64,000 nucleotides of DNA from an uncultured Candidatus Saccharibacteria bacterium (GTDB taxonomy: Bacteria > Patescibacteriota > Doudnabacteria > UBA920 > 2-01-FULL-46-14), in contig CAYNFS010000003.1 in assembly GCA_964396685.1 (NCBI GenBank), positions 110 to 64,109 on the forward strand, given 5' to 3'. The notes under the pieces are model-generated. The model did no database searches, was not told the origin of the DNA, and saw nothing but the letters and a program-made list of their open reading frames with translations. The position numbers were made by a program, and so were the translations under genes. Below are positions 2,840 to 52,606 of this stretch, piece by piece. Position 1 is the first letter of the stretch; every line of letters begins with the position of its first letter.

Positions 2840-5314
2840 ATGGCCAAGCCTCTCAAACCGCTAAAAAACGAGTCTGGAATCGGCTATGTCAAGCCTCGCG
2901 TGCTCGAGGAAGAAATGCAGGAATCTTATCTTGATTACGCGATGAGCGTAATTGTCTCGCGCGCCCTGCCAGACGTGCGCGACGGACTTAAACCCGTGCA
3001 CCGCCGGATTCTTTACGCCATGAATGAACTGGGACTTAACCCCCAAGCGCGCTACCGCAAATCCGCAACGGTAGTGGGCGAAGTCTTAGGCAAATACCAT
3101 CCCCACGGGGATGTGGCCGTATACGATTCGCTGGTGAGACTAGCTCAAAATTTTGCCATGCGCTATCCCTTAGTGGACGGCCAGGGGAACTTTGGCTCTC
3201 TTGACGGGGATGCGCCGGCCGCCATGCGCTACTCGGAGTGCCGGCTGGCCCCTTTGTCTTTGGAATTGCTCTCGGAGCTTGATAGAGAGACGGTTGACTG
3301 GATGGATAACTACGATGCCACCAAAAAGGAACCCAAAGTCTTGCCGGCCAAGCTTCCAAACCTGCTCTTAAACGGCACTTTGGGCATTGCTGTCGGAATG
3401 GCTACCGACATTCCTCCGCATAACTTAGGAGAAATTGCGGCGGCGACCAGCGCTTTGATTGACAATCCCAAGCTTACCAGTGAAGATCTCATGGATTTTG
3501 TTTTGGGTCCTGATTTCCCAACCGGCGGAATCATCTACGACTGGAGCGCCATAAAAGCGGCCTACGCCACCGGCAAGGGCAGTGTTACTGTCCGGGCGAA
3601 AACCGAAATTGTTGAAGGAAAAGATGGAAATTTCCAGATCCTCATCACGGAAATCCCTTATCGCGTCAACAAAGCGACGCTTTTGGAAAAATTTGCCGAA
3701 CTGGTGCGCGACAAAAAGTTAGAAGGAATCAAAAATTTGCGGGACGAATCTGATAAAGACGGAGTAAGAATCGTAGTGGAGCTGAAAAAAGACGCCCTAC
3801 CCAACAAAATCCTCAACCAGCTTTTTAAATATTCCCAGCTTCAGGATGCTTTCCACCTTAATATGCTGGCTCTAGTTGAAGGAATTGAGCCGCGGGTTCT
3901 AAATCTCAAAATGATTTTGGAGTATTATATCGCTCACCGCCGCGAGGTCGTGGCCAGACGCACGCGTTTTGACTTAGAAAAATCCAAGGAGAGAGCCCAT
4001 ATCCTGGAAGGATTAAAAAAAGCGCTTGACCACATCGACGCCATAATCAAGGCTATCAAACAATCTCAAACCAAAGAAGAGGCTCACGCCGAACTTCAGA
4101 AAAAATTCAAGCTTTCGGACAAACAGGCAACCGCGATTTTGGAGATGCGTCTGCAGGCTCTGGCTGGCTTGGAGCAACGCAAGATCGAAGAGGAGCTTAA
4201 AGAAAAAAGACAGCTGATCAAAGAGCTGGAAGAGCTTCTGAAATCCCCCAAAAAAATTGATTCAGTGGTCAAGAAGGAGCTTGCCGATTTGACAACCAAG
4301 TTTTCGGACCCGCGCCGGACTAAGCTTATCAAACAGCCCATTGGCGAATTCAAAGCCGAGGATCTGATAGCTAACGAAGACGCAATCATCGTTGTTACCA
4401 AATCCGGCTATGTAAAAAGGCTGCCGCCTGACACTTACCGCAAACAAGGCCGAGGCGGCAAAGGAGTAATCGGCATCACCACCAAAGAAGAAGATGTGGT
4501 GGAGAAACTGCTTGCCGCTAAGACCCACGATGACGTTATGTTTTTTACCAACAAAGGGCGAGTTTTCCAGACCAAAATCTACGAGCTTCCCGAGACCTCT
4601 CGTACGGCCAAAGGCCAAGCCCTGGTGAACTTTCTAGAGCTTGCACAAGGCGAATTTGCAACTGCCGTGCTCACCTTTGGCAAAGCCGAGCGGACCGCGT
4701 ACAAATACCTTTTTATGGGCACTAAATTCGGCACAGTCAAAAAAACCGCAATCTCGGAGTTTGAAAAGGTCAGGCACTCCGGACTTATCGCCGTTAAGCT
4801 TCAAAGGGATGACGAGCTTAGATGGGTCAATCTCTCTTCGGGCAATGATGACGTCATGATGACCACGGCTGGAGGGCAGGCGATCAGATTTAAAGAAACG
4901 GATGTGCGCCCCATGGGGCGGACGGCCGCGGGAGTGCGCGGAATCAGACTCAAAAAAGACGATCTCGTCATGAGTGTGGATGTTATTGAAAAAAGCCGCG
5001 ATCCCAAAAACCTCCAAGTGCTGGTGATTTCGGAGTTGGGGTTGGGCAAAAAAACCCCTCTTATGGAATATAAGGTTCAGCGCCGGGGCGGATCGGGAAT
5101 CAAAACCATGAACATCACCAAAAAAACCGGAAAAATCGTAATAATGCATACTGTCAACCGGGCGGAAGAAGCAGACCTTGTGGTTATTTCCAAAATGGGG
5201 CAGACTCTGCGCACGGCTTTGGGCCAGATCTCTACCCTGGGACGCGCTACACAGGGTGTGAGAATCTTGAAACTTGAATCAGGCGATCAGGTGGCTTCTG
5301 CCGCAATTGTCTAA
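2840..5314 (+). CDS. gyrA: DNA gyrase subunit A
   Basis: 824 aa. [32 protein letters not shown] and the C-terminal beta-pinwheel repeats are classic GyrA. Confidence 0.95.
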
Positions 5315-14212: not shown

Positions 14213-14518
14213 TGGTTCGCATAAACCAAACTGTCTATTCGCTTTCCCATTTTTTCTTCCTCCATTCCGCCGGGAAGCGATTGCCTCCGGGCTTCAATCT
14301 ACCTACGCACCAAAGGATGGTGCCTCCGTTTCACGGAATTGTGAAAGAACAAAAAACTGACCTTTCAAGAGGCCAGGTGGAGAAGCTTGAGTGGGGAAAC
14401 TAATGACTAATAATCGACAACTGATAACCAAACTTAAGCGCCTGGAAACTGGCCTCTTGGGAGAAGCCGTAGTAATAGGCGCGGACTAGTTGAAATGTTT
14501 TGATTATCATACTTTTCT

Positions 14519-28750: not shown

Positions 28751-28956
28751 ATTTTGGGAAAGGAGATCTGGTTAAAGTTAGCAATGGCTGCCGCATAGAG
28801 GCTCGTTATCAAAATCAAATAAAAAGCCGATAACACCAGTCCCAAAACCTTGGATTTGCCGAAGCGTAAAAGCACGTAAACCATGAGCAGGCTGTAAAAT
28901 GCCAAGATCATCATCAGCCCGTAAAACAAGATTTGGACCAAAAGCTTAATAATCAT
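28747..28956 (-). CDS. small two-helix membrane protein, hypothetical
   Basis: 69 aa, highly hydrophobic, overlapping both neighbouring genes (a translationally coupled operon). Confidence 0.3.
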
Positions 28957-29999
28957 AAAAGTTTGTTTAGATTTTGTGTTGACGCTTTTATTTTTAAATG
29001 CTCGTAAGCTTGCGGCGTCGCGACGCGCCCTTTGGGCGTGCGGGAAAGCAATCCCAAGCGCATCAGATACGGCTCATAGATATCCTCAATCGTGTCCTCT
29101 TCTTCGCTGGTGGCCGCGGCCAAAGAGTTGACACCCACTGGGCCGCCGCGGAATTTTTCTATAAGAGTTAGCAAAAATTGCCGGTCATTTCGGTCCAGGC
29201 CCAACTCATCCACTTCCAGCATGTGAAGCGCGGCTTGGGCCAGTTCAAAAGTAATCTTGCCGTCGGCTTTCACTTCGGCAAAGTCACGAACTCTTCTTAG
29301 CAGTCTGTTGGCGACTCTCGGGGTGCGGCGGGCGCGTTTGCCAATCTCTTGGGCGGCTTGAGGATCAATGCCAATTGCCAAAATTTGAGCCGAACGGCGG
29401 ACAATTTGTTCAATCTCCAAGGGTTCATAGTAGTCAAGCCGCAAGGTCACGCCAAAACGGTCGCGCAGGGGAGCGGAAATGAGGCCGATTCTTGTGGTGG
29501 CGCCGATTAGCGTGAAGCGGGGGAGATCAAGTCTTACGGAACGCGCGCCCGGCCCCTTTCCCAAAATAATGTCAAAGCGAAAGTCTTCCATGGCCGGATA
29601 CAAAACTTCTTCCACGATCTTGGGTAGCCTGTGGACCTCGTCAATGAACAAAATGTCATTGTCTTGCAGATTGGTAAGCAGACTTGCCAAATCGCCGGCT
29701 CGTTCTATGGCAGGGCCGGACGTAACTTTGATTGTAACACCAAGCTCGTTTGCCAAAACGTGTGCCAGCGTGGTTTTGCCCAAGCCGGGTGGGCCGTAGA
29801 CCAAAAGATGTTCTATCGGCTCTTCGCGTTTCTTGGCCGCTTCCAGAAAAATTTTGAGGTGCTCTTTATTTTTTTCCTGCCCCACGAATTCCTTGAGATT
29901 TTTAGGCCGCAATGTCAAATCAAGCTCCCGGTCATCCGGGGACTCTTTAGCAGTCACCACACCTTGTTTTTCTTTGGAGGGTTTCGAAATCATAAACAA
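28953..29999 (-). CDS. ruvB: Holliday junction branch migration helicase RuvB
   Basis: Walker [25 protein letters not shown], sensor and arginine-finger regions. Confidence 0.95.
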
Positions 30000-30073
30000 A
30001 TATTATGTCATTGCGAGGAGTCCGCGACGAAGCAATCTCATCACCCCCTCATTTTATCACCGATTTTAAGCAT

Positions 30074-30103
30074 TGACAAAGCGCTTCTGTCTAAGCTATA
30101 TTT
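30074..30103 (+). promoter_or_regulatory. sigma70-like promoter for hisG
   Basis: TTGACA, 18-nt spacer, TATATT. RBS GGAGGG at 30121-30126 before the ATG at 30132. Confidence 0.4.
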
Positions 30104-30131
30104 GAATGTCAATAAAGATTGGAGGGACTTC

Positions 30132-30788
30132 ATGCTTAATCTGGCTTTGCCTGACGGCAATCTCGAGAGGAATACTTTGCGGCTTTTGGAGGCCGCGGGT
30201 TTTAGGGTGGAGTTTATGGGGCGAAAATACACGGGCCGGATTCAAGATCCCTGCTTTGCCCACGTGGCGCTGATGCGGCCGCAGATTATGCCGGGACTCA
30301 TAGGAGGAGGAAACTATGATATTGGGATCTGCGGTTCGGACTGGGTTGAAGAAAGCATTACAAAGGCGCGGGTGATTGCGCGGTTCAACTATAATAGCAG
30401 GCAGTTCGGGAACGGGTGGCGGATAGTTTTAGTGGCTGGCGGAACTGATGTGGTCTCGAAGGGTGGGGAAATACCCGACGAGGCTGAGATTTTGAGCGAA
30501 TATCGGTGGATAACCGAGGATTACTTCAACAAAATCCACAAATTCGTGGATGTTAAAGAATCTTTGGGTAAAACCGAAGCGCACATTCCGCATGATTTCC
30601 GGTTTGGAGTCTGTGTTTCTGTAACTGGCGAGACACTCCGGGCCAATAATCTCAAGATCGTGGAAGTTTTGCGAAATGCCAACCCCTTATTGATTGCCTC
30701 GCCTCAAGCGATGCAAGACAAAAAGAAGAACGCCATGCTTGAAAGCGTCGCCGTGGCTCTCACTGAAGCACTCGCTTCTTTGCGCTGA
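30132..30788 (+). CDS. hisG: ATP phosphoribosyltransferase, short form
   Basis: MLNLALPDGNLERNTLRLLEAAGF and YDIGICGSDWVEE match the HisG N-terminal and substrate-binding motifs. 218 aa, which fits the short form. The track ORF at 29631 extends spuriously into ruvB. Confidence 0.7.
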   Translation: MLNLALPDGNLERNTLRLLEAAGFRVEFMGRKYTGRIQDPCFAHVALMRPQIMPGLIGGGNYDIGICGSDWVEESITKARVIARFNYNSRQFGNGWRIVLVAGGTDVVSKGGEIPDEAEILSEYRWITEDYFNKIHKFVDVKESLGKTEAHIPHDFRFGVCVSVTGETLRANNLKIVEVLRNANPLLIASPQAMQDKKKNAMLESVAVALTEALASLR

Positions 30789-30806
30789 CAGACCGCAAAT
30801 AGTCTG
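30781..30806. repeat. 26-nt hairpin motif GCGCTGACAGACCGCAAATAGTCTGT, copy 1, overlapping the hisG stop
   Basis: ACAGAC/GTCTGT inverted repeat. Identical or near-identical copies at 31274-31298 and 33027-33052, and a degenerate copy at 33487-33507. Confidence 0.75.
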
Positions 30807-30813
30807 TTTGTTT

Positions 30814-31002
30814 TTATTTCGGTTCTTCAATGCCCAAATCCCGACAAATTTTTCTGGCAAGAAAATCATTAATTTCTTTGTGCCGGGGGACCGTCGAAGT
30901 GCGTTTTAGTACGGGATTGAAAAAGACAGAATGCCTTGCGCCCTCTCTAATAAAAACACACCCTCTTTTCCGAAGGTGGCGGATTAGGCCGCTGTGTTTC
31001 AT
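30814..31002 (-). CDS. hicA: HicA-family toxin (YcfA-like mRNA interferase)
   Basis: 62 aa, MKHSGLIRHLRKRGCVFIREGARHSVFFNP...VPRHKEI fits the HicA fold pattern (KxxEliklL...G...GSH). Confidence 0.7.
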   Translation of the reverse strand: MKHSGLIRHLRKRGCVFIREGARHSVFFNPVLKRTSTVPRHKEINDFLARKICRDLGIEEPK

Positions 31003-31232
31003 TAAAGAGACACTGTTAGGGCCTTACGTTTTACTTTTCTGCCGTTAGTTTCGATTCTTCCAAGAAGTTTATTTGTTTCAAGTATAAGACGCAGGGCGTC
31101 TTGAAGATTCTCTTTGGTTTCAATCAGCGTTTTGCCTTGAGTATTAACGCCCGGAATTTCTTCGATCCACCCAAGATACCAACGGCCATGTTTTTGATAG
31201 ACTGCCGTGAACTGTCTTTTATTCTTTGCCAT
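31002..31232 (-). CDS. hicB: HicB-family antitoxin
   Basis: 76 aa. YLGWIEEIPGVNTQGKTLIETKENLQDALRLILE matches the HicB/UPF0150 N-domain pattern. Start and stop overlap with hicA. Confidence 0.65.
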   Translation of the reverse strand: MAKNKRQFTAVYQKHGRWYLGWIEEIPGVNTQGKTLIETKENLQDALRLILETNKLLGRIETNGRKVKRKALTVSL

Positions 31233-31273
31233 AACCTAAGTTTATTTAAAAAAGCTGTAAAAGTCAAGAATTA

Positions 31274-31345
31274 GCGCTGACAGGCCGCAGATAGTCTGCC
31301 CACCCGCCAGGATTCTTCCCAGATTCCGGCGGGCTTTTTTTATTT
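31274..31345. repeat. 26-nt motif copy 2 plus downstream terminator-like module CCCGCC...TTCCGGCGGGCTTTTTTTA
   Basis: GCGCTGACAGGCCGCAGATAGTCTG, then a CCCGCC/GGCGGG stem and a T7 run. The same TTCCGGCGGGCTTTTTTTA module follows the degenerate copy at 33531-33550. Confidence 0.65.
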
Positions 31346-31374
31346 CTCGATGTGTAAATATCCAGCGGCCGCTG
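31341..31374. repeat. 34-bp perfect palindrome GTGTAAATATCCAGCGGC|CGCTGGATATTTACAC
   Basis: Fully self-complementary 17+17 bp. Lies about 110 bp upstream of the hicB start codon and just after the cassette terminator. Confidence 0.8.
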
Positions 31375-31441
31375 GATATTTACACAATCAAATTAGATTC
31401 TTTCGCAAATTAATATGAGCCTATCTCAAAATTAGTTTTCT

Positions 31442-31511
31442 GTCATTCCGGGCTTGATCCGGAATCCAGATTTTGGCTTATTTACTGGATTCCCGCTTTC
31501 GCGGGAATGAC
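31442..31511. repeat. two hairpin repeats (GTCATTCCGGGCTTGATCCGGAATC ... CTGGATTCCCGCTTTCGCGGGAATGAC)
   Basis: Same GGAATGAC palindromic family as 14519 and 17808. Confidence 0.7.
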
Positions 31512-31581
31512 GGAAAGCGGGGAAAAATCAATTTTGAGATGAGTTCATATTGCTGTGGCATCTGGCAAAATCTGTCAGTGA

Positions 31582-32334
31582 TTATTTCACCGCAGATTGT
31601 TTCCACATAACCCAAAACCACTTCCGGTAACTCTCCGCCAAGTTCTTGCTATGGAGCACAAAAAAGACGATATTTTCATGAATTTTGAACAGCTCTAATC
31701 CCGTATAGGTCACAACATAATCTCCGAAAACGTGGATGATTGAGTTTGTGGAATATTCTTTTGGCAGGAAGCGATATTTCAGATTTCCCGGCCAGGTTTT
31801 TGCAAAGTCCGGGGCTTGAACTGCAATTTCATGATCAAATAGCTGGTGGAATTTTATTTTTTTACGGTTAGCGTCCTTAAAGAACGCTTCCCTGCTTGTT
31901 GCGAGTTTAGGTTCAAACCAACCGCCTTTGGCACCCACAATGTAATTCTCTTGGCCGACCCGTAAGACATCCCGCCAAATATTTTTTTGACCTTCATGGC
32001 CGCGATAGATGTAGGCTTCTTCCGGAGCAATCCGCTGGACGAATTTTTTCTTGAGTTCCGGCAACACTTTTTGCAGTTGTTGTTCTTTTTCGGCGTACAA
32101 TTCCAGAAGTTTGTCAGGGTCCGCGGCGTTATACCGATTTTCCTTGCTAGAAAAAATTTCAAAGACAAGCCCTTTGTCAATGAGCCGATGAATGGCATCA
32201 TAAGCGTTGCGTCTGTGAATTTTTGCCGCAATCGCAATGTCGCTTATGGAGGATTCCCCTTTTCCCACGAGCGACTCGTAGATCTTGGCTTCGTTGGGAC
32301 TCAAGCCCAGACTTTCAAAAATTTCTTGGTACAT
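31582..32334 (-). CDS. TrmB-family transcriptional regulator (second paralogue in the window)
   Basis: N-terminal wHTH MYQEIFESLGLSPNEAKIYESLVGKGESSISDIAIAAKIHRRNAYDAIHRLIDKGLV plus a C-terminal TrmB domain. Confidence 0.6.
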   Translation of the reverse strand: MYQEIFESLGLSPNEAKIYESLVGKGESSISDIAIAAKIHRRNAYDAIHRLIDKGLVFEIFSSKENRYNAADPDKLLELYAEKEQQLQKVLPELKKKFVQRIAPEEAYIYRGHEGQKNIWRDVLRVGQENYIVGAKGGWFEPKLATSREAFFKDANRKKIKFHQLFDHEIAVQAPDFAKTWPGNLKYRFLPKEYSTNSIIHVFGDYVVTYTGLELFKIHENIVFFVLHSKNLAESYRKWFWVMWKQSAVK

Positions 32335-32350
32335 TTCTACTAAATTATGT

Positions 32351-32368
32351 GGTGATAATTACCACCAA
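32351..32368. promoter_or_regulatory. 18-bp near-perfect palindrome TGGTGATAATTACCACCA, candidate operator
   Basis: One mismatch from perfect dyad symmetry. Lies 17 bp upstream of the TrmB start (minus strand), in the region divergent from the 32454 gene. Confidence 0.35.
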
Positions 32369-32453
32369 ATGGTGCTATTGGCCACTCTTAATACATAATA
32401 TATGCTATCGCTTCAACAGTCAAGCACTGTTGTAAAAGGAGGAATCATTGAGT

Positions 32454-33047
32454 ATGCCTGGATTCATAGTAAAGGCGATTATTTTGCTGGCACTGCCTTA
32501 TCTATTGGACGCCCAAGACCTGCAGAACCGCTCGACTCTGCATTTAATAGCGGACATTACCGACCGGTGGTACGTGGCCCTCTGGCCGATTGCCAACATT
32601 AGAGCGCAGTCACCCAGCAACTTCAACATTTTTGCTGGCGCAGGACGCCGCGGTAAGAATTGGTATCTGGAAGCCATGGCCCAGAAGCAGTGGAACGGCA
32701 AAGGCGGGTTGTGGACGCTAGACTTCCGCTATCGCAGGCAAGTTACCGGTCGCCTTTCGGTTTATGCCGAACCAGACGTTTTCCTTAGCCGGCGCGCGTT
32801 TTACGAGTTTATAATAGTGGAGTATCGCTCATGGCGGAAATTTAACTTGGGCGGTGAAACTGAAAACGTTCACCAGCTCGGTAAAGACGTTCTGGCGGCA
32901 GGGCCGCGGATCAGCCGCCCGCTTGGCAGGCTCTGGGGAACCGACTTTGCGCTCGGATTGGCCTATAGGACAGCTTCACCGGGGCACAATGAAATCAGGA
33001 TTTACCTGAACGCCACCAAGCGTTTTGCGCTGACAGACCGCAAATAG
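32454..33047 (+). CDS. secreted hypothetical protein (signal peptide)
   Basis: MPGFIVKAIILLALPYLLDAQDL signal-peptide-like N-terminus, Trp/Arg-rich, GC-rich. Start set at the ATG after RBS AAAGGAGG (the track used TTG at 32448). Ends inside copy 3 of the 26-nt motif. Confidence 0.4.
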   Translation: MPGFIVKAIILLALPYLLDAQDLQNRSTLHLIADITDRWYVALWPIANIRAQSPSNFNIFAGAGRRGKNWYLEAMAQKQWNGKGGLWTLDFRYRRQVTGRLSVYAEPDVFLSRRAFYEFIIVEYRSWRKFNLGGETENVHQLGKDVLAAGPRISRPLGRLWGTDFALGLAYRTASPGHNEIRIYLNATKRFALTDRK

Positions 33048-33052
33048 TCTGT
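33027..33052. repeat. 26-nt hairpin motif copy 3 (GCGCTGACAGACCGCAAATAGTCTGT)
   Basis: Identical to copy 1. The stop codon of the 32454-33047 gene lies inside it, in a different frame from the hisG case. Confidence 0.75.
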
Positions 33053-33079
33053 CTATTCTGTTTTCGACTGGAGGAAGAA

Positions 33080-33484
33080 ATGAGTAAGGCAGAAATTATC
33101 GCAAAAGCCCTGAAGAAGAATGGGGTGCTTGCGGATTTCGATCCGGAGAATAGGGACGATATGCTTGGTTATTTCCTGGTCATTCGTCAGCCCGGCAAAC
33201 CAGTCTTTCTGGTGGTTGATGAGTCTGGATTACAAAGCCATGCTTCAGTGGTCGCGGCTCTTCGTCGACTGGAAGTTTTACCTCACATGCCCGGGCAAAG
33301 TTTGCCCGAGTCAATAATCCGGTGTATTCGTGGAGGCACATACTCTTATAACTGGATTAAGACATGGCCCATGGAGGGGAATTGGACCATCGGGATGTCT
33401 AGCGGCGACTATGGGGTGGTTTGGGAAGACCTCCGGGCTCGGATAATCGACATTGTGAGCGGTGGGAAGCAGTGGCAGAAATGA
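33080..33484 (+). CDS. hypothetical protein
   Basis: 134 aa with RBS GGAGGAAGAAATG and no recognisable motif. Followed by the degenerate 26-nt motif and the terminator module at 33487-33550. Confidence 0.35.
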   Translation: MSKAEIIAKALKKNGVLADFDPENRDDMLGYFLVIRQPGKPVFLVVDESGLQSHASVVAALRRLEVLPHMPGQSLPESIIRCIRGGTYSYNWIKTWPMEGNWTIGMSSGDYGVVWEDLRARIIDIVSGGKQWQK

Positions 33485-33548
33485 ATCGCTAACAGACCAC
33501 AGAAAGCTTACTCGCCTGAATTCTTTGAAGGGTTCCGGCGGGCTTTTT

Positions 33549-33683
33549 TTATCCGCCTCCGCTCCTGCGACCACGGGCTTGATCGGTGGATGAAGGGCGG
33601 TACGGATAAAGCACGTGAGGGCAAAACATCGTCTGGCTTCGGCGGATGCAGCAGCGAGATTCTAGGCGGATAAATAAGGGCGG
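33549..33683 (+). repeat. conserved structured element of about 135 nt, copy A (TTATCCGCCTCC ... GGCGGATAAA)
   Basis: About 75% identical to 51935-52066. The 5' TTATCCGCC can pair with the 3' GGCGGATAA. Shared internal blocks GTGGATGAAGG, TAAAGCACGT and GCTTCGGCGGATG(C/T)AGCA, with compensatory changes in the hairpin regions. Confidence 0.6.
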
Positions 33684-33728
33684 TTTTCCATGGGATTTAA
33701 GCCGAGTTGGGATTGCTCGCAATGACAG

Positions 33729-35246
33729 CTAGCGGCGATGTTTGAAGTTTTTCAAAAATTCAAGCGCCAAGCGTACGCCGACACCGGTTGCACCTTTCGG
33801 CCGATAAGGTTTTTCGCGCGTGGTCCAGGCGACCCCGGCGATGTCGAGATGAATCCAGGGATAGCTTACAAAGTTTTGCAGGAAAAGCGCGGCGTTAACG
33901 GCGTCTCCCTGCCGAGGAACTGCGCCGACATTTCTTAAATCCGCAAAATCGCTTTTGATAAATTGTTCGTATTCTTTGTAAAGCGGCATTAGCCAGATTT
34001 GCTCGCCGGTTATTTGTGCGGCATTTTTTAATTGCGGCACCAACCTTTCTTGATTGGTAAATGCGCCGATTAGATCGTCTCCCAGTGCTACCACGATTGC
34101 CCCGGTGAGTGTGGCAAAATCAATAACGAGGACGGGCTTGTATTTTTTGGCGTAATCTAAAGCATCGGCCAAAACCATTCTTCCTTCGGCATCAGTATTT
34201 ACGACTTCAATGGTTAGACCTGCACGGGAACGGACGATATCTCCCGGTTTGATCGCTTTGCCCGAGGGAAGATTTTCTGTGGCAGGGATAAGCCCCACCA
34301 AGTTTATGGGGAGTCGCAGCTCGCAGGCGGCTTTGATTGTGGCAAGGACTGTGGCTCCTCCCGCCATGTCATATTTCATTTCCTCCATTTTCTCCGAAGG
34401 CTTGATAGAAATGCCGCCGCTGTCAAAAGTGATTCCTTTGCCCGCCAGGACAACTGTCGGGGCTTTTTTCTCCGCGTGATATTCCAAAACAATAAATTTT
34501 GGCTCCTCATCCGAGCCTTGAGCTACAGCCAGCACGGCGCCCATGCTTTCTTTTTGTAAATCCCCCTTCCCCAAAACTTTGGCTTTGAGAATTTTCGAGT
34601 GCTGTTTGGCCAGATCTAAAGCGTGTTTGGCTAAGTGCTGTGGTGTTGCAACATTTCCCGGGTGGTTTCCTAAATCCCTGGCGTAGTTTGCGGCTTGAGA
34701 CAAAGTATGCGCGACGGTTGCCGCTTTGAGGACCTTGGTTTTGTCGCGGGAGTTGCTTAAAACAAACTGAATTTGTGTTAAGGCCGCGGGTTTTTCTTCT
34801 TCGCCCCGCTTCTTATATTCTGTAAATTTGTAATTCGCGAGCAGTATTCCTTCTGTGAGAGCTTGAGTGGCTGATTCGACCGAGACTTTGCTGGGCAAGG
34901 TTTTTATCAAGGCGATCGCAATATCATTGACTTTGAACTTTTGAGCAACCGGAGCCGCAGCGCTCATGGCCGTTCTTGCTTTCTCCAAGTTATATTCGGA
35001 TTGTTTGCCCAGCCCCAAAAGCAAAACGCGCTTAGCCGCAGTCCTTTTGCCGGTAAACATCGCTTGGGTTTCCGCGAGCTTGGGCTTGAAGTCACCGCGG
35101 CTGATTAAATCGGAAATTTCTTCTCCCAGGGCACGGTTGAGTTCTTTGGCTTTTGGCTCAAGTTCCTTGGCATCTTCAAAAAGAGGGACGATTAGAAGAT
35201 CGGTTTGGATTTGTGATAAAGGCCTGGTGGTGGTTTGAAAATTCAT
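33729..35246 (-). CDS. pepA: leucyl aminopeptidase (M17 family)
   Basis: NTDAEGRMVLADAL and VVNTDAEGR-type M17 active-site motifs. Confidence 0.9.
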   Translation of the reverse strand: MNFQTTTRPLSQIQTDLLIVPLFEDAKELEPKAKELNRALGEEISDLISRGDFKPKLAETQAMFTGKRTAAKRVLLLGLGKQSEYNLEKARTAMSAAAPVAQKFKVNDIAIALIKTLPSKVSVESATQALTEGILLANYKFTEYKKRGEEEKPAALTQIQFVLSNSRDKTKVLKAATVAHTLSQAANYARDLGNHPGNVATPQHLAKHALDLAKQHSKILKAKVLGKGDLQKESMGAVLAVAQGSDEEPKFIVLEYHAEKKAPTVVLAGKGITFDSGGISIKPSEKMEEMKYDMAGGATVLATIKAACELRLPINLVGLIPATENLPSGKAIKPGDIVRSRAGLTIEVVNTDAEGRMVLADALDYAKKYKPVLVIDFATLTGAIVVALGDDLIGAFTNQERLVPQLKNAAQITGEQIWLMPLYKEYEQFIKSDFADLRNVGAVPRQGDAVNAALFLQNFVSYPWIHLDIAGVAWTTREKPYRPKGATGVGVRLALEFLKNFKHRR

Positions 35247-48244: not shown

Positions 48245-48257
48245 TAGACTATCTGAT

Positions 48258-48362
48258 GAGGCCGACAAACTTGAAAACCAGAATTTTTTTGGATTCCGGC
48301 GATCCTGACGAGACCCGGGAGGCTTTGGGCTTGCTTGGATTTCTTGACGGGCAGACGACCAA
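48258..48362 (+). pseudogene. duplicated 5' fragment of the transaldolase gene (about 85% identical to 48870-48975)
   Basis: ATGAGGCCGACAAACTTGAAAACCAGAATTTTTTTGGATTCCGGCGATCCTGACGAGACCCGGGAGGCTTTGGGCTTGCTTGGATTTCTTGACGGGCAGACGACCAATC aligns with the genuine tal start. The reading frame hits a stop shortly after the duplicated part. Confidence 0.6.
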
Positions 48363-48417
48363 TCTTCTATTTTCGTTATGCTTTGCTTCAAATCTAAAAT
48401 TTTGCTAACATGTAAAT

Positions 48418-48869: not shown

Positions 48870-49799
48870 ATGAGACCAGCAAATCTCAAAACCAGAATTT
48901 TTCTTGATTCAGGCGATCCTGACGAGACCCGGGAGGCTTTGGGCTTGCTTGGATTTTTTGACGGGCAGACGACCAATCCGAGCTTGATTGCCAAAAATCC
49001 GGAAACGGCCGGGAAGAAATTTACTCGCGAGGAGATTTTGGATTTTTACAAAAAAGTCGTGCAAGAGATTTCGGGTTTGATTCCCGAAGGCTCGGTTTCG
49101 ATAGAGGTTTATGCGGATTTCTCGACACCCGGCCTTCCTACCCCCTCTTCATCTCCCCCATCGCATGGGGGAGAAAAAAGATTGTCCATGCTCGAACAGG
49201 CGAGGGGGATGTTTCATTGGATTCCGAATGGTCATATCAAATTTCCAACCACGACAGAAGGGCTTAAGGCGGCAGAGCAAGCGGTCAAGGAAGGCATGGG
49301 AGTCAACATGACTCTGTGTTTTTCGCAGGAACAGGCGGCCGCGGTTTATGCTGCAACCAGAGGGGCCCAGAGAGGGCAAGTTTTTGTCTCGCCATTTGTG
49401 GGGAGGCTGGATGACCGAGGCGAGCGGGGGATGGATTTGATCGCGAATATTATTAAGATGTATAAACAGGGAGACGGACATGTGGAGGTGCTCACGGCGA
49501 GTGTGAGGAACATTGAGCATGTTTTGGAAGCGCTGCGATTAGGGTCGGATATTATTACGATGCCATTGGGGGTGCTCGAAAACTCCAAATCACAAATAAC
49601 AAATCCCAAACAAATCCCAAATTTTCCGCCCAAGGCGGATCCACCCCTGGCGGACAAATTCCAAATTCAAAACTTGAAGCCAATAGATTATAAAGAGCTT
49701 GATTTAGATAAATCCTGGCAGGAGTATGATATCGGGCATGAGCTGACGGACATCGGAATGGAGAAGTTTTCCGAGGATTGGAACCGATTAATAAAGTGA
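48870..49799 (+). CDS. tal: transaldolase / fructose-6-phosphate aldolase family, with in-frame insertions
   Basis: IFLDSGDPDETREALGLLGFFDGQTTNPSLIAKN and FVSPFVGRLDD (Schiff-base Lys region). At 309 aa it is about 90 aa longer than typical short-form Tal/FSA. Insert sequences PTPSSSPPSHGGEKRLS and SKSQITNPKQIPNFPPKADPP. Confidence 0.85.
   Translation: MRPANLKTRIFLDSGDPDETREALGLLGFFDGQTTNPSLIAKNPETAGKKFTREEILDFYKKVVQEISGLIPEGSVSIEVYADFSTPGLPTPSSSPPSHGGEKRLSMLEQARGMFHWIPNGHIKFPTTTEGLKAAEQAVKEGMGVNMTLCFSQEQAAAVYAATRGAQRGQVFVSPFVGRLDDRGERGMDLIANIIKMYKQGDGHVEVLTASVRNIEHVLEALRLGSDIITMPLGVLENSKSQITNPKQIPNFPPKADPPLADKFQIQNLKPIDYKELDLDKSWQEYDIGHELTDIGMEKFSEDWNRLIK
49150..49172. repeat. palindromic element TCTCCCCCATCGCATGGGGGAGA inside tal
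   Basis: CTCCCCC/GGGGGAG inverted repeat, in frame. Sister of 18774-18798. Confidence 0.6.
49581..49668. repeat. CAAAT-rich tandem repeats and a CCGCC...GGCGG hairpin inside tal
   Basis: CACAAATAACAAATCCCAAACAAATCCCAAATTTTCCGCCCAAGGCGGATCC...CCAAATTCCAAATTCAAAAC. Same CAAATCCCAA unit as in tkt at 42892. Confidence 0.6.
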
Positions 49800-51388: not shown

Positions 51389-51870
51389 GCCTTTGATCCC
51401 TTGGGAAGTTGGTTCTTTTGGATCCTTTGTTTTTTGGGATTCTTTAAGACCAATTCCCCCGGGGTTATTTTTTATGATATAATTTTGGGCAGAGAGTAGG
51501 TTAAAGCGGATTGGTTCAAGGATCAATCCCGCCGAAATCGGTGTGAGTTTGATTTACCAGAATTTTTGTGATCACGGTTACAAAAAGCGCGTAAAAAACT
51601 TAAAGGCACTACTTGTCTGTTTCTAATGCCTGACTAAATTGGGGCAGGGAGCGGTATCAGCCGCCGAGCTGTTGGCCGATTTCCTGAAGGTGCGTTTGGA
51701 GAAGAAGATATTTTTTGTTATCCAGACACCTCAAATCTCTGGCAATTCTAACGAATATTTTCTGAGCGTCCAGTTTTATACTTGCTCGTTTGAAAACAAA
51801 ATCAAAAATAGCCGGTTTTTATGGCTGATTGAAGAAATTATTGAAAATTTTTCTGTGGATAAAATCGGAC

Positions 51871-51880
51871 AGCGGGGGGG
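51871..51880. repeat. G10 homopolymer at the frame switch inside the RT
   Basis: CAGCGGGGGGGGGGCTTT. The RT reading frame shifts exactly here. Confidence 0.8.
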
Positions 51881-51939
51881 GGGCTTTATATGGATTGCCA
51901 ATCGGCAATTTAACCTCGCAAATATTCGCAAACATTTAT

Positions 51940-52160
51940 CCGCCTCCGCCGAATACCACGGGGTTACCCGTGGATGAAGGCGGAAGGCGTAAAGCACGTA
52001 AGCTAAAGCATAAGTCAAGCTTCGGCGGATGTAGCAACGACAGCCCAGGCGGATAAACCCGCCTTAGCTTTAGGGAAGGCGGGTATGGAGGGTACCACGG
52101 CTTCCCGGCCGTCGTAGCCATAGGCCACTATGGCGGAGTCGGCTAGCCGTGGGGCTCCAT
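51940..52160 (+). mobile_element. 221-nt insertion splitting RT motif 4 from motif 5. Contains copy B of the conserved structured element (core 51935-52066)
   Basis: Removing 51940-52160 joins ...SQIFANIY to LNELDQFV..., the contiguous DGR-RT consensus. The insertion starts TTATCCGCCTCC and contains GGCGGATAAA, like copy A at 33549-33683. Confidence 0.6.
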
Positions 52161-52578
52161 TTGAATGAATTAGACCAGTTTGTAAAACACCAGCTTCGAG
52201 TAAAATATTACTTTCGCCATGCTGATGATTTTGTTATAGTTCATAGTGACGACACTCATTTGCAGGGCCCAACCTGCTCAATTCAGAGGTTTTTGAAAGA
52301 CGATCTTGATCTGGGGCTGCATCCTAAAAAAATCGTCATCAGAAGACTCCACCAAGGCATAGATTTTTTGGGTTATGTTATTTTACCTCATCATATCGTA
52401 TTGAGGACGAAAACCAAAAGAAGAACATTTAGAAAACTTTTTGAAAAAAGAGGAATGCTCGAAAGGGATAAGATAAGTTTTGAGAGTTATAATCAATCAA
52501 TACAGTCTTATTTGGGCATGTTGGAGCATTCAAATGGATATAATTTGAGTAATATAATTCAGAATAATTTTTCAGGAG

Positions 52579-52606
52579 CTGGATTCCCGCTTCCACGGGA
52601 ATGACA
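52579..52606. repeat. hairpin repeat CTGGATTCCCGCTTCCACGGGAATGACA at the RT 3' end
   Basis: GGAATGAC palindromic family. Supplies the terminal codons (GFPLPRE) and the stop of the RT ORF. Confidence 0.6.

Follow-up and report, generated by a model that had tools for sequence, protein, structure and literature searches.

A sequence-conserved, low-copy hairpin, probably a terminator, at gene ends in a Doudnabacteria-like bacterium

Why do unrelated neighbouring genes end in the same short sequence? The question is raised by a 64,000-nucleotide (nt) stretch of an uncultured bacterium of the Doudnabacteria lineage (GenBank assembly GCA_964396685.1, contig CAYNFS010000003.1, positions 110 to 64,109), hereafter the window. 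Between ruvB and pepA, an orphan hisG, a hicAB toxin-antitoxin pair, a gene for a secreted 197-amino-acid (aa) protein and a 134-aa gene are each accompanied by a copy of one 26-nt motif. This element is a sequence-conserved, low-copy, putative terminator hairpin at gene ends and is new; it is neither an integron attC site nor a repetitive extragenic palindromic (REP) sequence. From its sequence context we tentatively read it as a portable terminator or attenuator that may serve as a module boundary in a small Doudnabacteria-like clade of the candidate phyla radiation (CPR), a reading that we hold at slightly less than an even chance.

A pattern search of the window located the 26-mer GCGCTGACAGACCGCAAATAGTCTGT exactly at 30782-30807 (+ strand, w1) and 33027-33052 (+, w3), and a third copy with three mismatches, GCGCTGACAGGCCGCAGATAGTCTGC, at 31274-31299 (+, w2); no such match is expected by chance (100 shuffles). 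A looser pattern recovered the degenerate copy TCGCTAACAGACCACAGAAAGCTTAC at 33486-33511 (+, w4), which matches at 17 of 26 positions and has lost the 3' half of the stem. Three near-identical copies and a degenerate fourth had been described in an original prediction made from the letters alone, and they are real, the first beginning at 30782 rather than 30781. The same prediction rightly placed two stop codons inside the motif in different frames: the hisG TGA (30786-30788) occupies motif positions 5-7 and the TAG of the 197-aa protein (33045-33047) occupies positions 19-21. Between w1 and w3 all 29 of 29 nt agree, TTT flank included, and the identity over 43 nt is 88%.

Two types of downstream sequence follow the motif. 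In type A (w1 and w3) a T-rich tract comes after it, and a terminator pattern scan flags both copies. The w1 hairpin, GACAGAC-CGCAAATA-GTCTGTT (30787-30808, +), continues into TGTTTTTATTT, and w3 into TATTCTGTTTT and then the ribosome-binding site and ATG of the 134-aa gene. In type B (w2 and the relic w4) the motif leads directly into a long second hairpin and T7, here called term2. The term2 module fused to w2 (2a; 31303-31342, +) is the long hairpin CCCGCC-A-GGA-T-TCT/AGA-T-TCC-G-GGCGGG followed by T7. The module after w4 (2b; 33512-33551, +) reads CTCGCC...GGCGGG followed by T7, and its 3' flank is orthologous to that of the terminator in a sister genome, L004. Both share the 19-nt tail TTCCGGCGGGCTTTTTTTA, exact at 31324-31342 and 33533-33551 (0.14 expected), as the predicted common terminator required. 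Together w2 and term2 fold at -26 kcal/mol (z = -2.7), and they match the motif and terminator of the L004 porin-like gene, the orthologue of the 197-aa gene, at 83% over 47 nt. When the CPR loci were searched with one sequence pattern, a motif copy preceded all four term2 copies.

The arrangement extends beyond the window. For 13 of 19 independent copies, the stop codon of the sense-strand gene falls between 16 nt upstream of the motif and the motif itself. At least six T are found in the 10 nt past the stem in the nine stand-alone CPR copies with an intact stem, and the four remaining CPR copies go straight into term2. The feature that characterizes intrinsic terminators, a stem-loop followed by a U-tract on the sense strand at a gene 3' end, is present: in w1, L003a, L003b, L005, L016 and L024 the 10 nt beyond the stem include at least 6-9 T, and with an 8-bp stem and T6-7 the copies L003a, L005, L016 and L024 qualify as canonical terminators. 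Two distant orthologues carry other terminators. One of them, L014, has a diverged version, ACAGC-CTGCAAAGA-GCTGT followed by T7, in which one base pair has been deleted on both sides, and this suggests that the ancestral role was that of an ordinary terminator.

The motif forms the core of a sense-strand hairpin of about 34 nt, GCGCUGA-YAGRC / CGC-N4-6-A / GUCURUC. It folds as (U)GACAGAC - CGCAAAUA - GUCUGUC(A), with a stem of 7-8 bp, no bulges and a loop of 8 or 9 nt, both lengths being tolerated across copies; the GCGC(U) flank 5' of the stem is unpaired and nearly invariant. Compensatory changes turn C-G into T-A in L003b and in the phage copy L028/30, and A-T into G-C in the phage copy L023b. 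G·U pairs occur in the stems of w1, w2, L003b and L021, and the w2 stem has one G·U and one A·C. Double changes are seen at three pairs, and the real register pairs 83% of positions, compared with 25-40% in slid controls. Hairpin energies range from -9 to -11.5 kcal/mol (-9.3 for w1) with z of about -1 to -2.8. Rfam 15 gave no hit to the motif, whether in the window or at five phage loci, no papers were found for the motif sequence, and broader literature searches yielded nothing relevant. A likeness to the P22 boxB sequence (GCGCUGACA) was dropped, as the alternative 3-bp stem is too weak.

The copy w3 is the native 3' hairpin of the porin-like gene. Orthologues in L003, L004, L005, L013 and L016 keep it almost base for base at protein identities of 43-85%, and mean pairwise nucleotide identity is 0.88 over the motif versus 0.5-0.65 along the gene. 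The L016 motif lies 11 nt after the stop codon, and the C-terminus of the family natively lies near ...TRRF, so that the ALTDRK tail of the window protein is the motif translated by read-through. Taken together, the L016 position, the read-through tail and the identity contrast argue that conservation of the motif does not derive from coding.

Its distribution is narrow. A covariance model (CM) built from 15 copies and run with filters off over the 64 kb matches only w3, w1 and w2 (52.6, 47.1 and 44.3 bits), all within 2.3 kb, and the next best hit scores 12 bits. Two scans of ~185,000 reference genomes found zero and two matching genomes, with one exact copy each. A metagenome scan returned two relevant contigs and one chance match, the latter on a eukaryote-like contig (L001) without the GC flank at 25.8 bits. 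The CM and reference-genome scans rule out a scattered REP element, the alternative against which the original prediction had asked to be checked. A solitary CRISPR (clustered regularly interspaced short palindromic repeats) repeat is likewise ruled out, given a single match per locus with no spacer-length periodicity and no arrays in the genome, metagenome and viral scans. The window does contain a genuine dispersed REP-like hairpin family, D2 (CTGGATTCCCGCYTTCGCGGGAATGAC), whose sequence is unlike the motif and which occurs on both strands at 14513, 17807, 31481, 52575 and 63754. One D2 copy sits inside a 28-nt inverted-repeat unit (31412-31551), resembling a miniature inverted-repeat transposable element (MITE), between term2 and the TrmB gene.

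Phages also carry the hairpin. Two viral scans identified it in five families of IMG/VR contigs from tailed, apparently lytic phages (L021/27/29, L023 with two copies, L024, L025 and L028/30), all of which have the GCGC flank and the same stem as the CPR copies. Among 57 viral matches to a loosened pattern, 49 are GC-rich coding sequence lacking stem complementarity and were discarded. The contigs encode terminase, portal, a Gp2.5-like single-stranded DNA-binding protein, exonucleases, Sak4, dUTPase and HNH proteins, and no integrase was found among 20 phage proteins checked (5-15 kb per contig, five families). Four of the six phage copies lie 10-16 nt past a stop codon. The L021 motif merely precedes a tRNA-Met and is not part of it. 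No gene is common to the phage contigs and the CPR loci; on the viral contigs there is no relative of the porin-like protein and no copy of the window's TrmB operon, with one weak partial TrmB match (33% over 55 residues). Cultured phages gave no motif match. In L025 (2020-2130) and L028 (11610-11720) the motif lies between two covarying outer hairpins, and the three together make up an intergenic element with z = -3.0 and -6.1. This element is located 88 nt upstream of a conserved 155-aa gene, near the terminase/portal module.

How the cargo around the hairpin varies can be read from related genomes. L004 (GCA_040960375.1) is syntenic with the window from dnaN to pepA and has the order ruvB / TrmB / porin-like gene-motif-term2 / DUF11 gene / pepA, without hisG-hicAB and the 134-aa gene. 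The ruvB-pepA comparison proposed in the original prediction was run with BLAST against this genome and yielded the breakpoints: 28901-29984 corresponds to ruvB, 31595-33051 to TrmB and the porin-like gene including its motif (82% nucleotide identity), and 33723 onward to pepA. One window-specific insertion (29985-31594) comprises hisG, w1, hicAB, w2-term2, a palindrome and the MITE-like repeat; the other (33052-33722) comprises the 134-aa gene, w4-term2 and a structured element described below. The single accessory island that had been proposed is in fact two insertions around a conserved TrmB and porin-like core. The cassette-like layout is borne out by the absence of hisG-hicAB and the 134-aa gene from L004, where motif and term2 are fused; in the window, they are separated precisely by the 134-aa gene and its relic w4. 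Taken as a whole, the hisG-hicAB insertion does not have the motif as its boundary.

Other loci carry other cargo. In L017 the gene that opens a different TrmB operon is homologous to the 134-aa gene, and this operon ends in the same degenerate motif and term2, so the w4 relic is not a fresh junction and travels with the gene family. A different gene follows the motif in L013, a small gene with a variant motif lies ahead of the porin-like gene in L003, and in L015, beside pepA, other cargo is placed between a full and a half motif. The cargo adjacent to pepA thus differs among three genomes (window, L004 and L015). By sequence comparison the locus is a hot spot in which the TrmB operons are alike on the promoter side and on the hairpin/term2 side and unlike in cargo. 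Four assemblies of the same population show no structural variants at the locus. The contig is also assigned to a Candidatus Doudnabacteria metagenome-assembled genome, GCA_016205105.1, and the population is represented in SRR12113383-85 and SRR12113430. Two terminator modules with the identical tail GGGTCTTTTTTATTTCAA (L017 305-385 and 2930-2990) enclose a PIN/ribbon-helix-helix (RHH) toxin-antitoxin pair and the TrmB operon of L017, and the loop of the left module includes CTGACAGA, the start of the motif.

We propose that the hairpin would be the native 3'-end signal of the TrmB-controlled porin-like gene, acting as a weak intrinsic terminator or attenuator and as a stem that protects the 3' end. 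It would work alone with its U-rich tract or as the first of two hairpins in a 3' untranslated region (UTR) whose second is the strong terminator term2. Since the same short sequence closes different transcription units, it could act as a module boundary. The 134-aa gene and hicAB would have been added between hairpin and term2, the hairpin and its flank would have been copied onto the unrelated hisG (w1 = w3), and whole cargo sets may have been swapped between TrmB operons with a common promoter side and hairpin/term2 side. Recombination of the ordinary kind, homologous or illegitimate, at the shared sequence would account for the shuffling, much as for phage morons and module linkers, and no dedicated recombinase would be involved. 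We infer both the termination or attenuation activity and this route of recombination from sequence features. A hairpin that functions in the transcript is favoured by the sense orientation at gene ends, the U-tract or second terminator, the G·U changes, the loops of 8 or 9 nt, the ancestral terminator and the presence on phage contigs with no integrase among the proteins checked.

Several observations weigh against this proposal. The hairpin is weak, at -9 to -11.5 kcal/mol, and its loop is large. The U-tract is lacking in five of the six phage copies (L021, L023a/b, L025 and L028). The copies w2, L015a and L015b come after genes in reverse orientation (hicAB, a PIN/antitoxin pair and a 111-aa gene) and abut the -35 boxes of those promoters. 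Direct repeats of the motif flank inserted genes, with the distal copy degenerate, and att-type recombination leaves the same pattern. Finally, the stem sequence, the GCGCUGA flank and the first loop bases CGC are kept across species with ~45-50% protein identity and across phages, none of which a plain terminator needs. That the exact sequence of stem, flank and loop start is held constant points to a putative sequence-specific partner, and on sequence grounds a recombination site or a protein-binding site is possible.

The original prediction likened the layout to gene cassettes with a conserved 3' recombination or processing site. As a dedicated recombination site, the motif would be att- or attC-like and served by a recombinase encoded elsewhere that acts on it as double-stranded or folded single-stranded DNA, and circular cassettes of gene plus hairpin would be inserted and excised. 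Direct repeats do flank the inserts (w1...hicAB...w2; w3...134-aa gene...w4; L015a...111-aa gene...L015b), L004 resembles an empty site in which a single motif is joined to term2 and the breakpoint falls right at the 3' foot of the stem, and the inserts of ~460-620 nt, with single open reading frames (ORFs) and reversed toxin-antitoxin modules, resemble integron arrays. The degenerate distal copy would fit junctions of integrative mobile elements exploiting Xer (IMEX) or att junctions, and phages with one copy each would recall attP. We nevertheless consider this explanation unlikely. As had been noted, no recombinase is visible: none was found among the proteins annotated across the window or in the L004, L005 and L017 loci, and neither a tyrosine or serine recombinase nor an HUH enzyme was seen in the 64 kb, the related loci or the 20 phage proteins. 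A core-type site does not tolerate a spacer of either 8 or 9 nt between the stem halves. Furthermore, the w4 relic already accompanies its gene family in L017, the motif does not delimit the hisG-hicAB insertion, no variants are seen among the four assemblies of one population, and a T-tract or terminator follows the CPR copies. The strict sense orientation at stop codons argues for a role at the RNA level. A more specific proposal, which we regard as a shade less probable still, is that the hairpin would be the recognition site of an undescribed cassette-exchange system common to CPR bacteria and phages. A trans-acting recombinase or HUH-type nuclease would bind the GCGCTGA flank and stem in folded single-stranded DNA (ssDNA) or RNA and insert or excise single-gene modules at gene ends, as an integron-like system with a 26-nt site and no linked integrase.

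A site for a sequence-specific protein, as an mRNA or DNA operator that tunes its neighbours, would make termination secondary and the cassette appearance incidental. Conservation of the stem, 5' flank and loop CGC beyond structural need fits such a site, as do the motif's association with TrmB operons in seven loci, the location of three copies at divergent promoters, 5-15 nt ahead of the -35 box, and several copies 25-90 nt ahead of the next start codon. We judge it about as improbable as the dedicated recombination site. The variable spacer and G·U-type asymmetries suit a hairpin more than a dimer operator, no gene start lies near 8 of 19 copies, and the phage contigs have no gene in common with the CPR loci, so that no common cognate protein is visible. 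An operator for TrmB in particular is unlikely, as the TrmB-porin intergenic region carries its own conserved palindrome (GGTGGTCTTGGCCACTC), which is unrelated to the motif. Least probable, in our view, is a substrate of an HUH transposase of the IS200/IS605 type or a REP-associated tyrosine transposase (RAYT), comparable to REPs or palindrome-associated transposable elements (PATEs) and mobilized as ssDNA. Its unpaired 5' flank and free-loop hairpin do resemble a REP (GTAG plus hairpin), a second small element at the locus is invariably inserted after TTTAT, and the copies are in direct orientation as at IS608 ends. However, three to four copies occur in one 2.7-kb stretch with none elsewhere in the 64 kb, two reference genomes have one exact copy each, neither the window nor the related loci showed a Y1 transposase, and the real dispersed repeat of the window is the different D2 sequence. 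The L004 empty site retains its hairpin, so the hairpins are not both ends of an element.

The portable terminator or attenuator that we favour shares features with several known systems. With intrinsic terminators and tandem-hairpin 3' UTRs it has in common the sense hairpin at the stop codon or shortly past it, the U-rich tract or second hairpin plus U7, and the compensatory stem. Ordinary terminators, in contrast, are neither sequence-conserved between species nor common to unrelated genes and phages, whereas here hardly any variation is seen in the stem, a 7-nt unpaired flank and three loop bases; the stem is also short and AT-rich, with an 8-9-nt loop. In the modular theory of phage evolution, morons and module-boundary linkers are small terminator-bounded units between conserved neighbours. 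They likewise place the same short boundary in different genomes, including phages, and mosaic cargo between conserved flanks, but the locus described here is on a CPR chromosome and not in a prophage, its boundary is one 34-nt hairpin, and recombination there is proposed from sequence.

Integron cassettes, including clusters of attC sites lacking integron-integrases (CALIN), also show repeated gene-hairpin units, single-ORF inserts of ~0.5 kb, reversed toxin-antitoxin pairs and some promoterless inserts. The motif is no attC site, as the original prediction recognized. It lacks R''/R' boxes (RYYYAAC/GTTRRRY) and extrahelical bases, is a 24-nt perfect stem-loop (stem 7-8 bp) rather than 55-140 nt, is conserved in sequence and not in structure only, and comes with no IntI or other recombinase. 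REPs and bacterial interspersed mosaic elements (BIMEs) with their RAYTs are similar in the short hairpin, conserved 5' flank, location at gene 3' ends and possible effect on mRNA ends. REPs number tens to hundreds of copies, often as inverted pairs, whereas the motif has three to four, at one locus and all direct. Xer modules (pdif, IMEX) likewise combine an inverted repeat with a central spacer, carry small modules including toxin-antitoxin pairs between their sites, and have one good and one degenerate site. A dif/Xer site is rejected here: Xer sites have two 11-bp arms and a fixed 6-8 bp centre, and the motif has a variable spacer, copies that are all direct and not alternating, a location ~8 kb from dnaA/dnaN (near oriC) and not at the terminus, and no likeness to known dif sites. 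Nor is a phage attP/attB core indicated, as the 20 proteins of five phage families (5-15 kb per contig) include no integrase.

Other candidates were also rejected. A sigma-70 promoter in the motif is seen only in w3, as a 9/12 match, and the other copies have no consistent -10 box. A selenocysteine insertion sequence (SECIS) or read-through signal does not fit stops in different frames and a motif outside the ORF in L016, L003b and L024. The target hairpin of a diversity-generating retroelement does not apply, as the reverse-transcriptase gene at 51.6-52.6 kb is disrupted and a 109-nt repeat has no A-biased changes. This direct repeat (48256-48364 and 48870-48978, 91% identity) is a duplicated transaldolase 5' end and is not adenine-biased.

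The genes of the locus were predicted correctly as hisG, hicBA and TrmB, with Pfam matches to HisG, HicA, HicB/UPF0150 and TrmB. The hisG-like gene (30132-30788, +) encodes 218 aa (Pfam HisG, E = 1.7e-19), has its last two codons and TGA within w1 and is absent from L004. The toxin-antitoxin pair (30814-31232, -) consists of hicA (30814-31002, Pfam HicA_toxin) and hicB (31002-31232, Pfam UPF0150), and a promoter scan places a promoter-like site at 31267-31239, abutting w2. The TrmB-family "sugar-specific" regulator (31582-32334, -) is divergent from the porin-like gene and also occurs in L003, L004, L005, L016 and L017. The 197-aa protein (32454-33047, +) has a signal peptide and takes its last six residues, ALTDRK, from the motif. 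It is predicted to form a 12-strand transmembrane beta-barrel (predicted local distance difference test, pLDDT, 85), and its best PDB matches are the KdgM/NanC sugar porins (template modelling score 0.54-0.64). A porin-like barrel, as structure prediction suggests, is unexpected in a CPR bacterium thought to have no outer membrane. The protein has about eight relatives, six found by protein search and those of L003 and L016 read off motif-matched contigs, and most of their loci include a divergently transcribed TrmB regulator. The 134-aa gene (33080-33484, +) could not be assigned a function; it is absent from L004, its sole homologue is that of L017 (64%; the degenerate motif to which w4 is orthologous follows 137/139-aa genes there), and its structure prediction was uninformative (pLDDT 38). 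Neither the 197-aa nor the 134-aa protein has a Pfam match. The base composition of the locus shows no sign of foreign origin.

The TrmB/porin intergenic region contains a conserved palindrome, ATGGTGGTCTTGGCCACTC, beside a -10-like box, TAATATAC (window 32335-32450; L004 9015-9127; L005 6985-7048; L017 1857-2066), which is probably the TrmB operator. In the same region a covarying hairpin immediately precedes the Shine-Dalgarno sequence. A 34-nt hairpin-type mini-insert, GTCATTGCGAGGAGTCCGCGACGAAGCAATCTCA (30009-30042), occurs in the window between the ruvB start and the hisG promoter and is absent from L004. Just after w2-term2 lies the perfect palindrome TGTGTAAATATCCAGCGGCCGCTGGATATTTACACA (31347-31387), centred on GCGGCCGC, at which short-read contigs of the same population end. 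L015 has half a copy of the palindrome next to the structured element (5173-5193) and another GCGGCCGC-centred palindrome after its motif, at about 4045-4010 (-).

The structured element is ~210 nt long and occurs twice in the window (copy A, 33551-~33730; copy B, 51939-52151), in L015 (5160-4985, -) and in L004 (9755 onward). All copies begin with CCGCCTCCG right after TTTAT, for example on the term2 T-run. Copy B interrupts a reverse-transcriptase ORF (51639-51977 and 52149-52604, weak RVT_1 match), the break falling precisely at the junction of FANIY and LNELDQF. Neither Rfam nor the viral contigs yielded a match to the structured element, which resembles a small mobile or intron-like element landing on terminator T-tracts.

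CPR bacteria have tiny genomes with few recognized mobile-element systems, and the ways in which they acquire and exchange accessory genes are poorly understood. At this locus and its relatives, one hairpin closes regulator-linked operons with interchangeable cargo that includes a porin-like barrel, toxin-antitoxin pairs, an orphan hisG and unassigned genes. Should the hairpin prove to be no more than a terminator, it would still neatly illustrate how a terminator can form a module boundary, and it might serve as a marker that ties phages to CPR hosts. Should it be recognized by a factor, the hairpin would represent a new class of cis-element, absent from Rfam.

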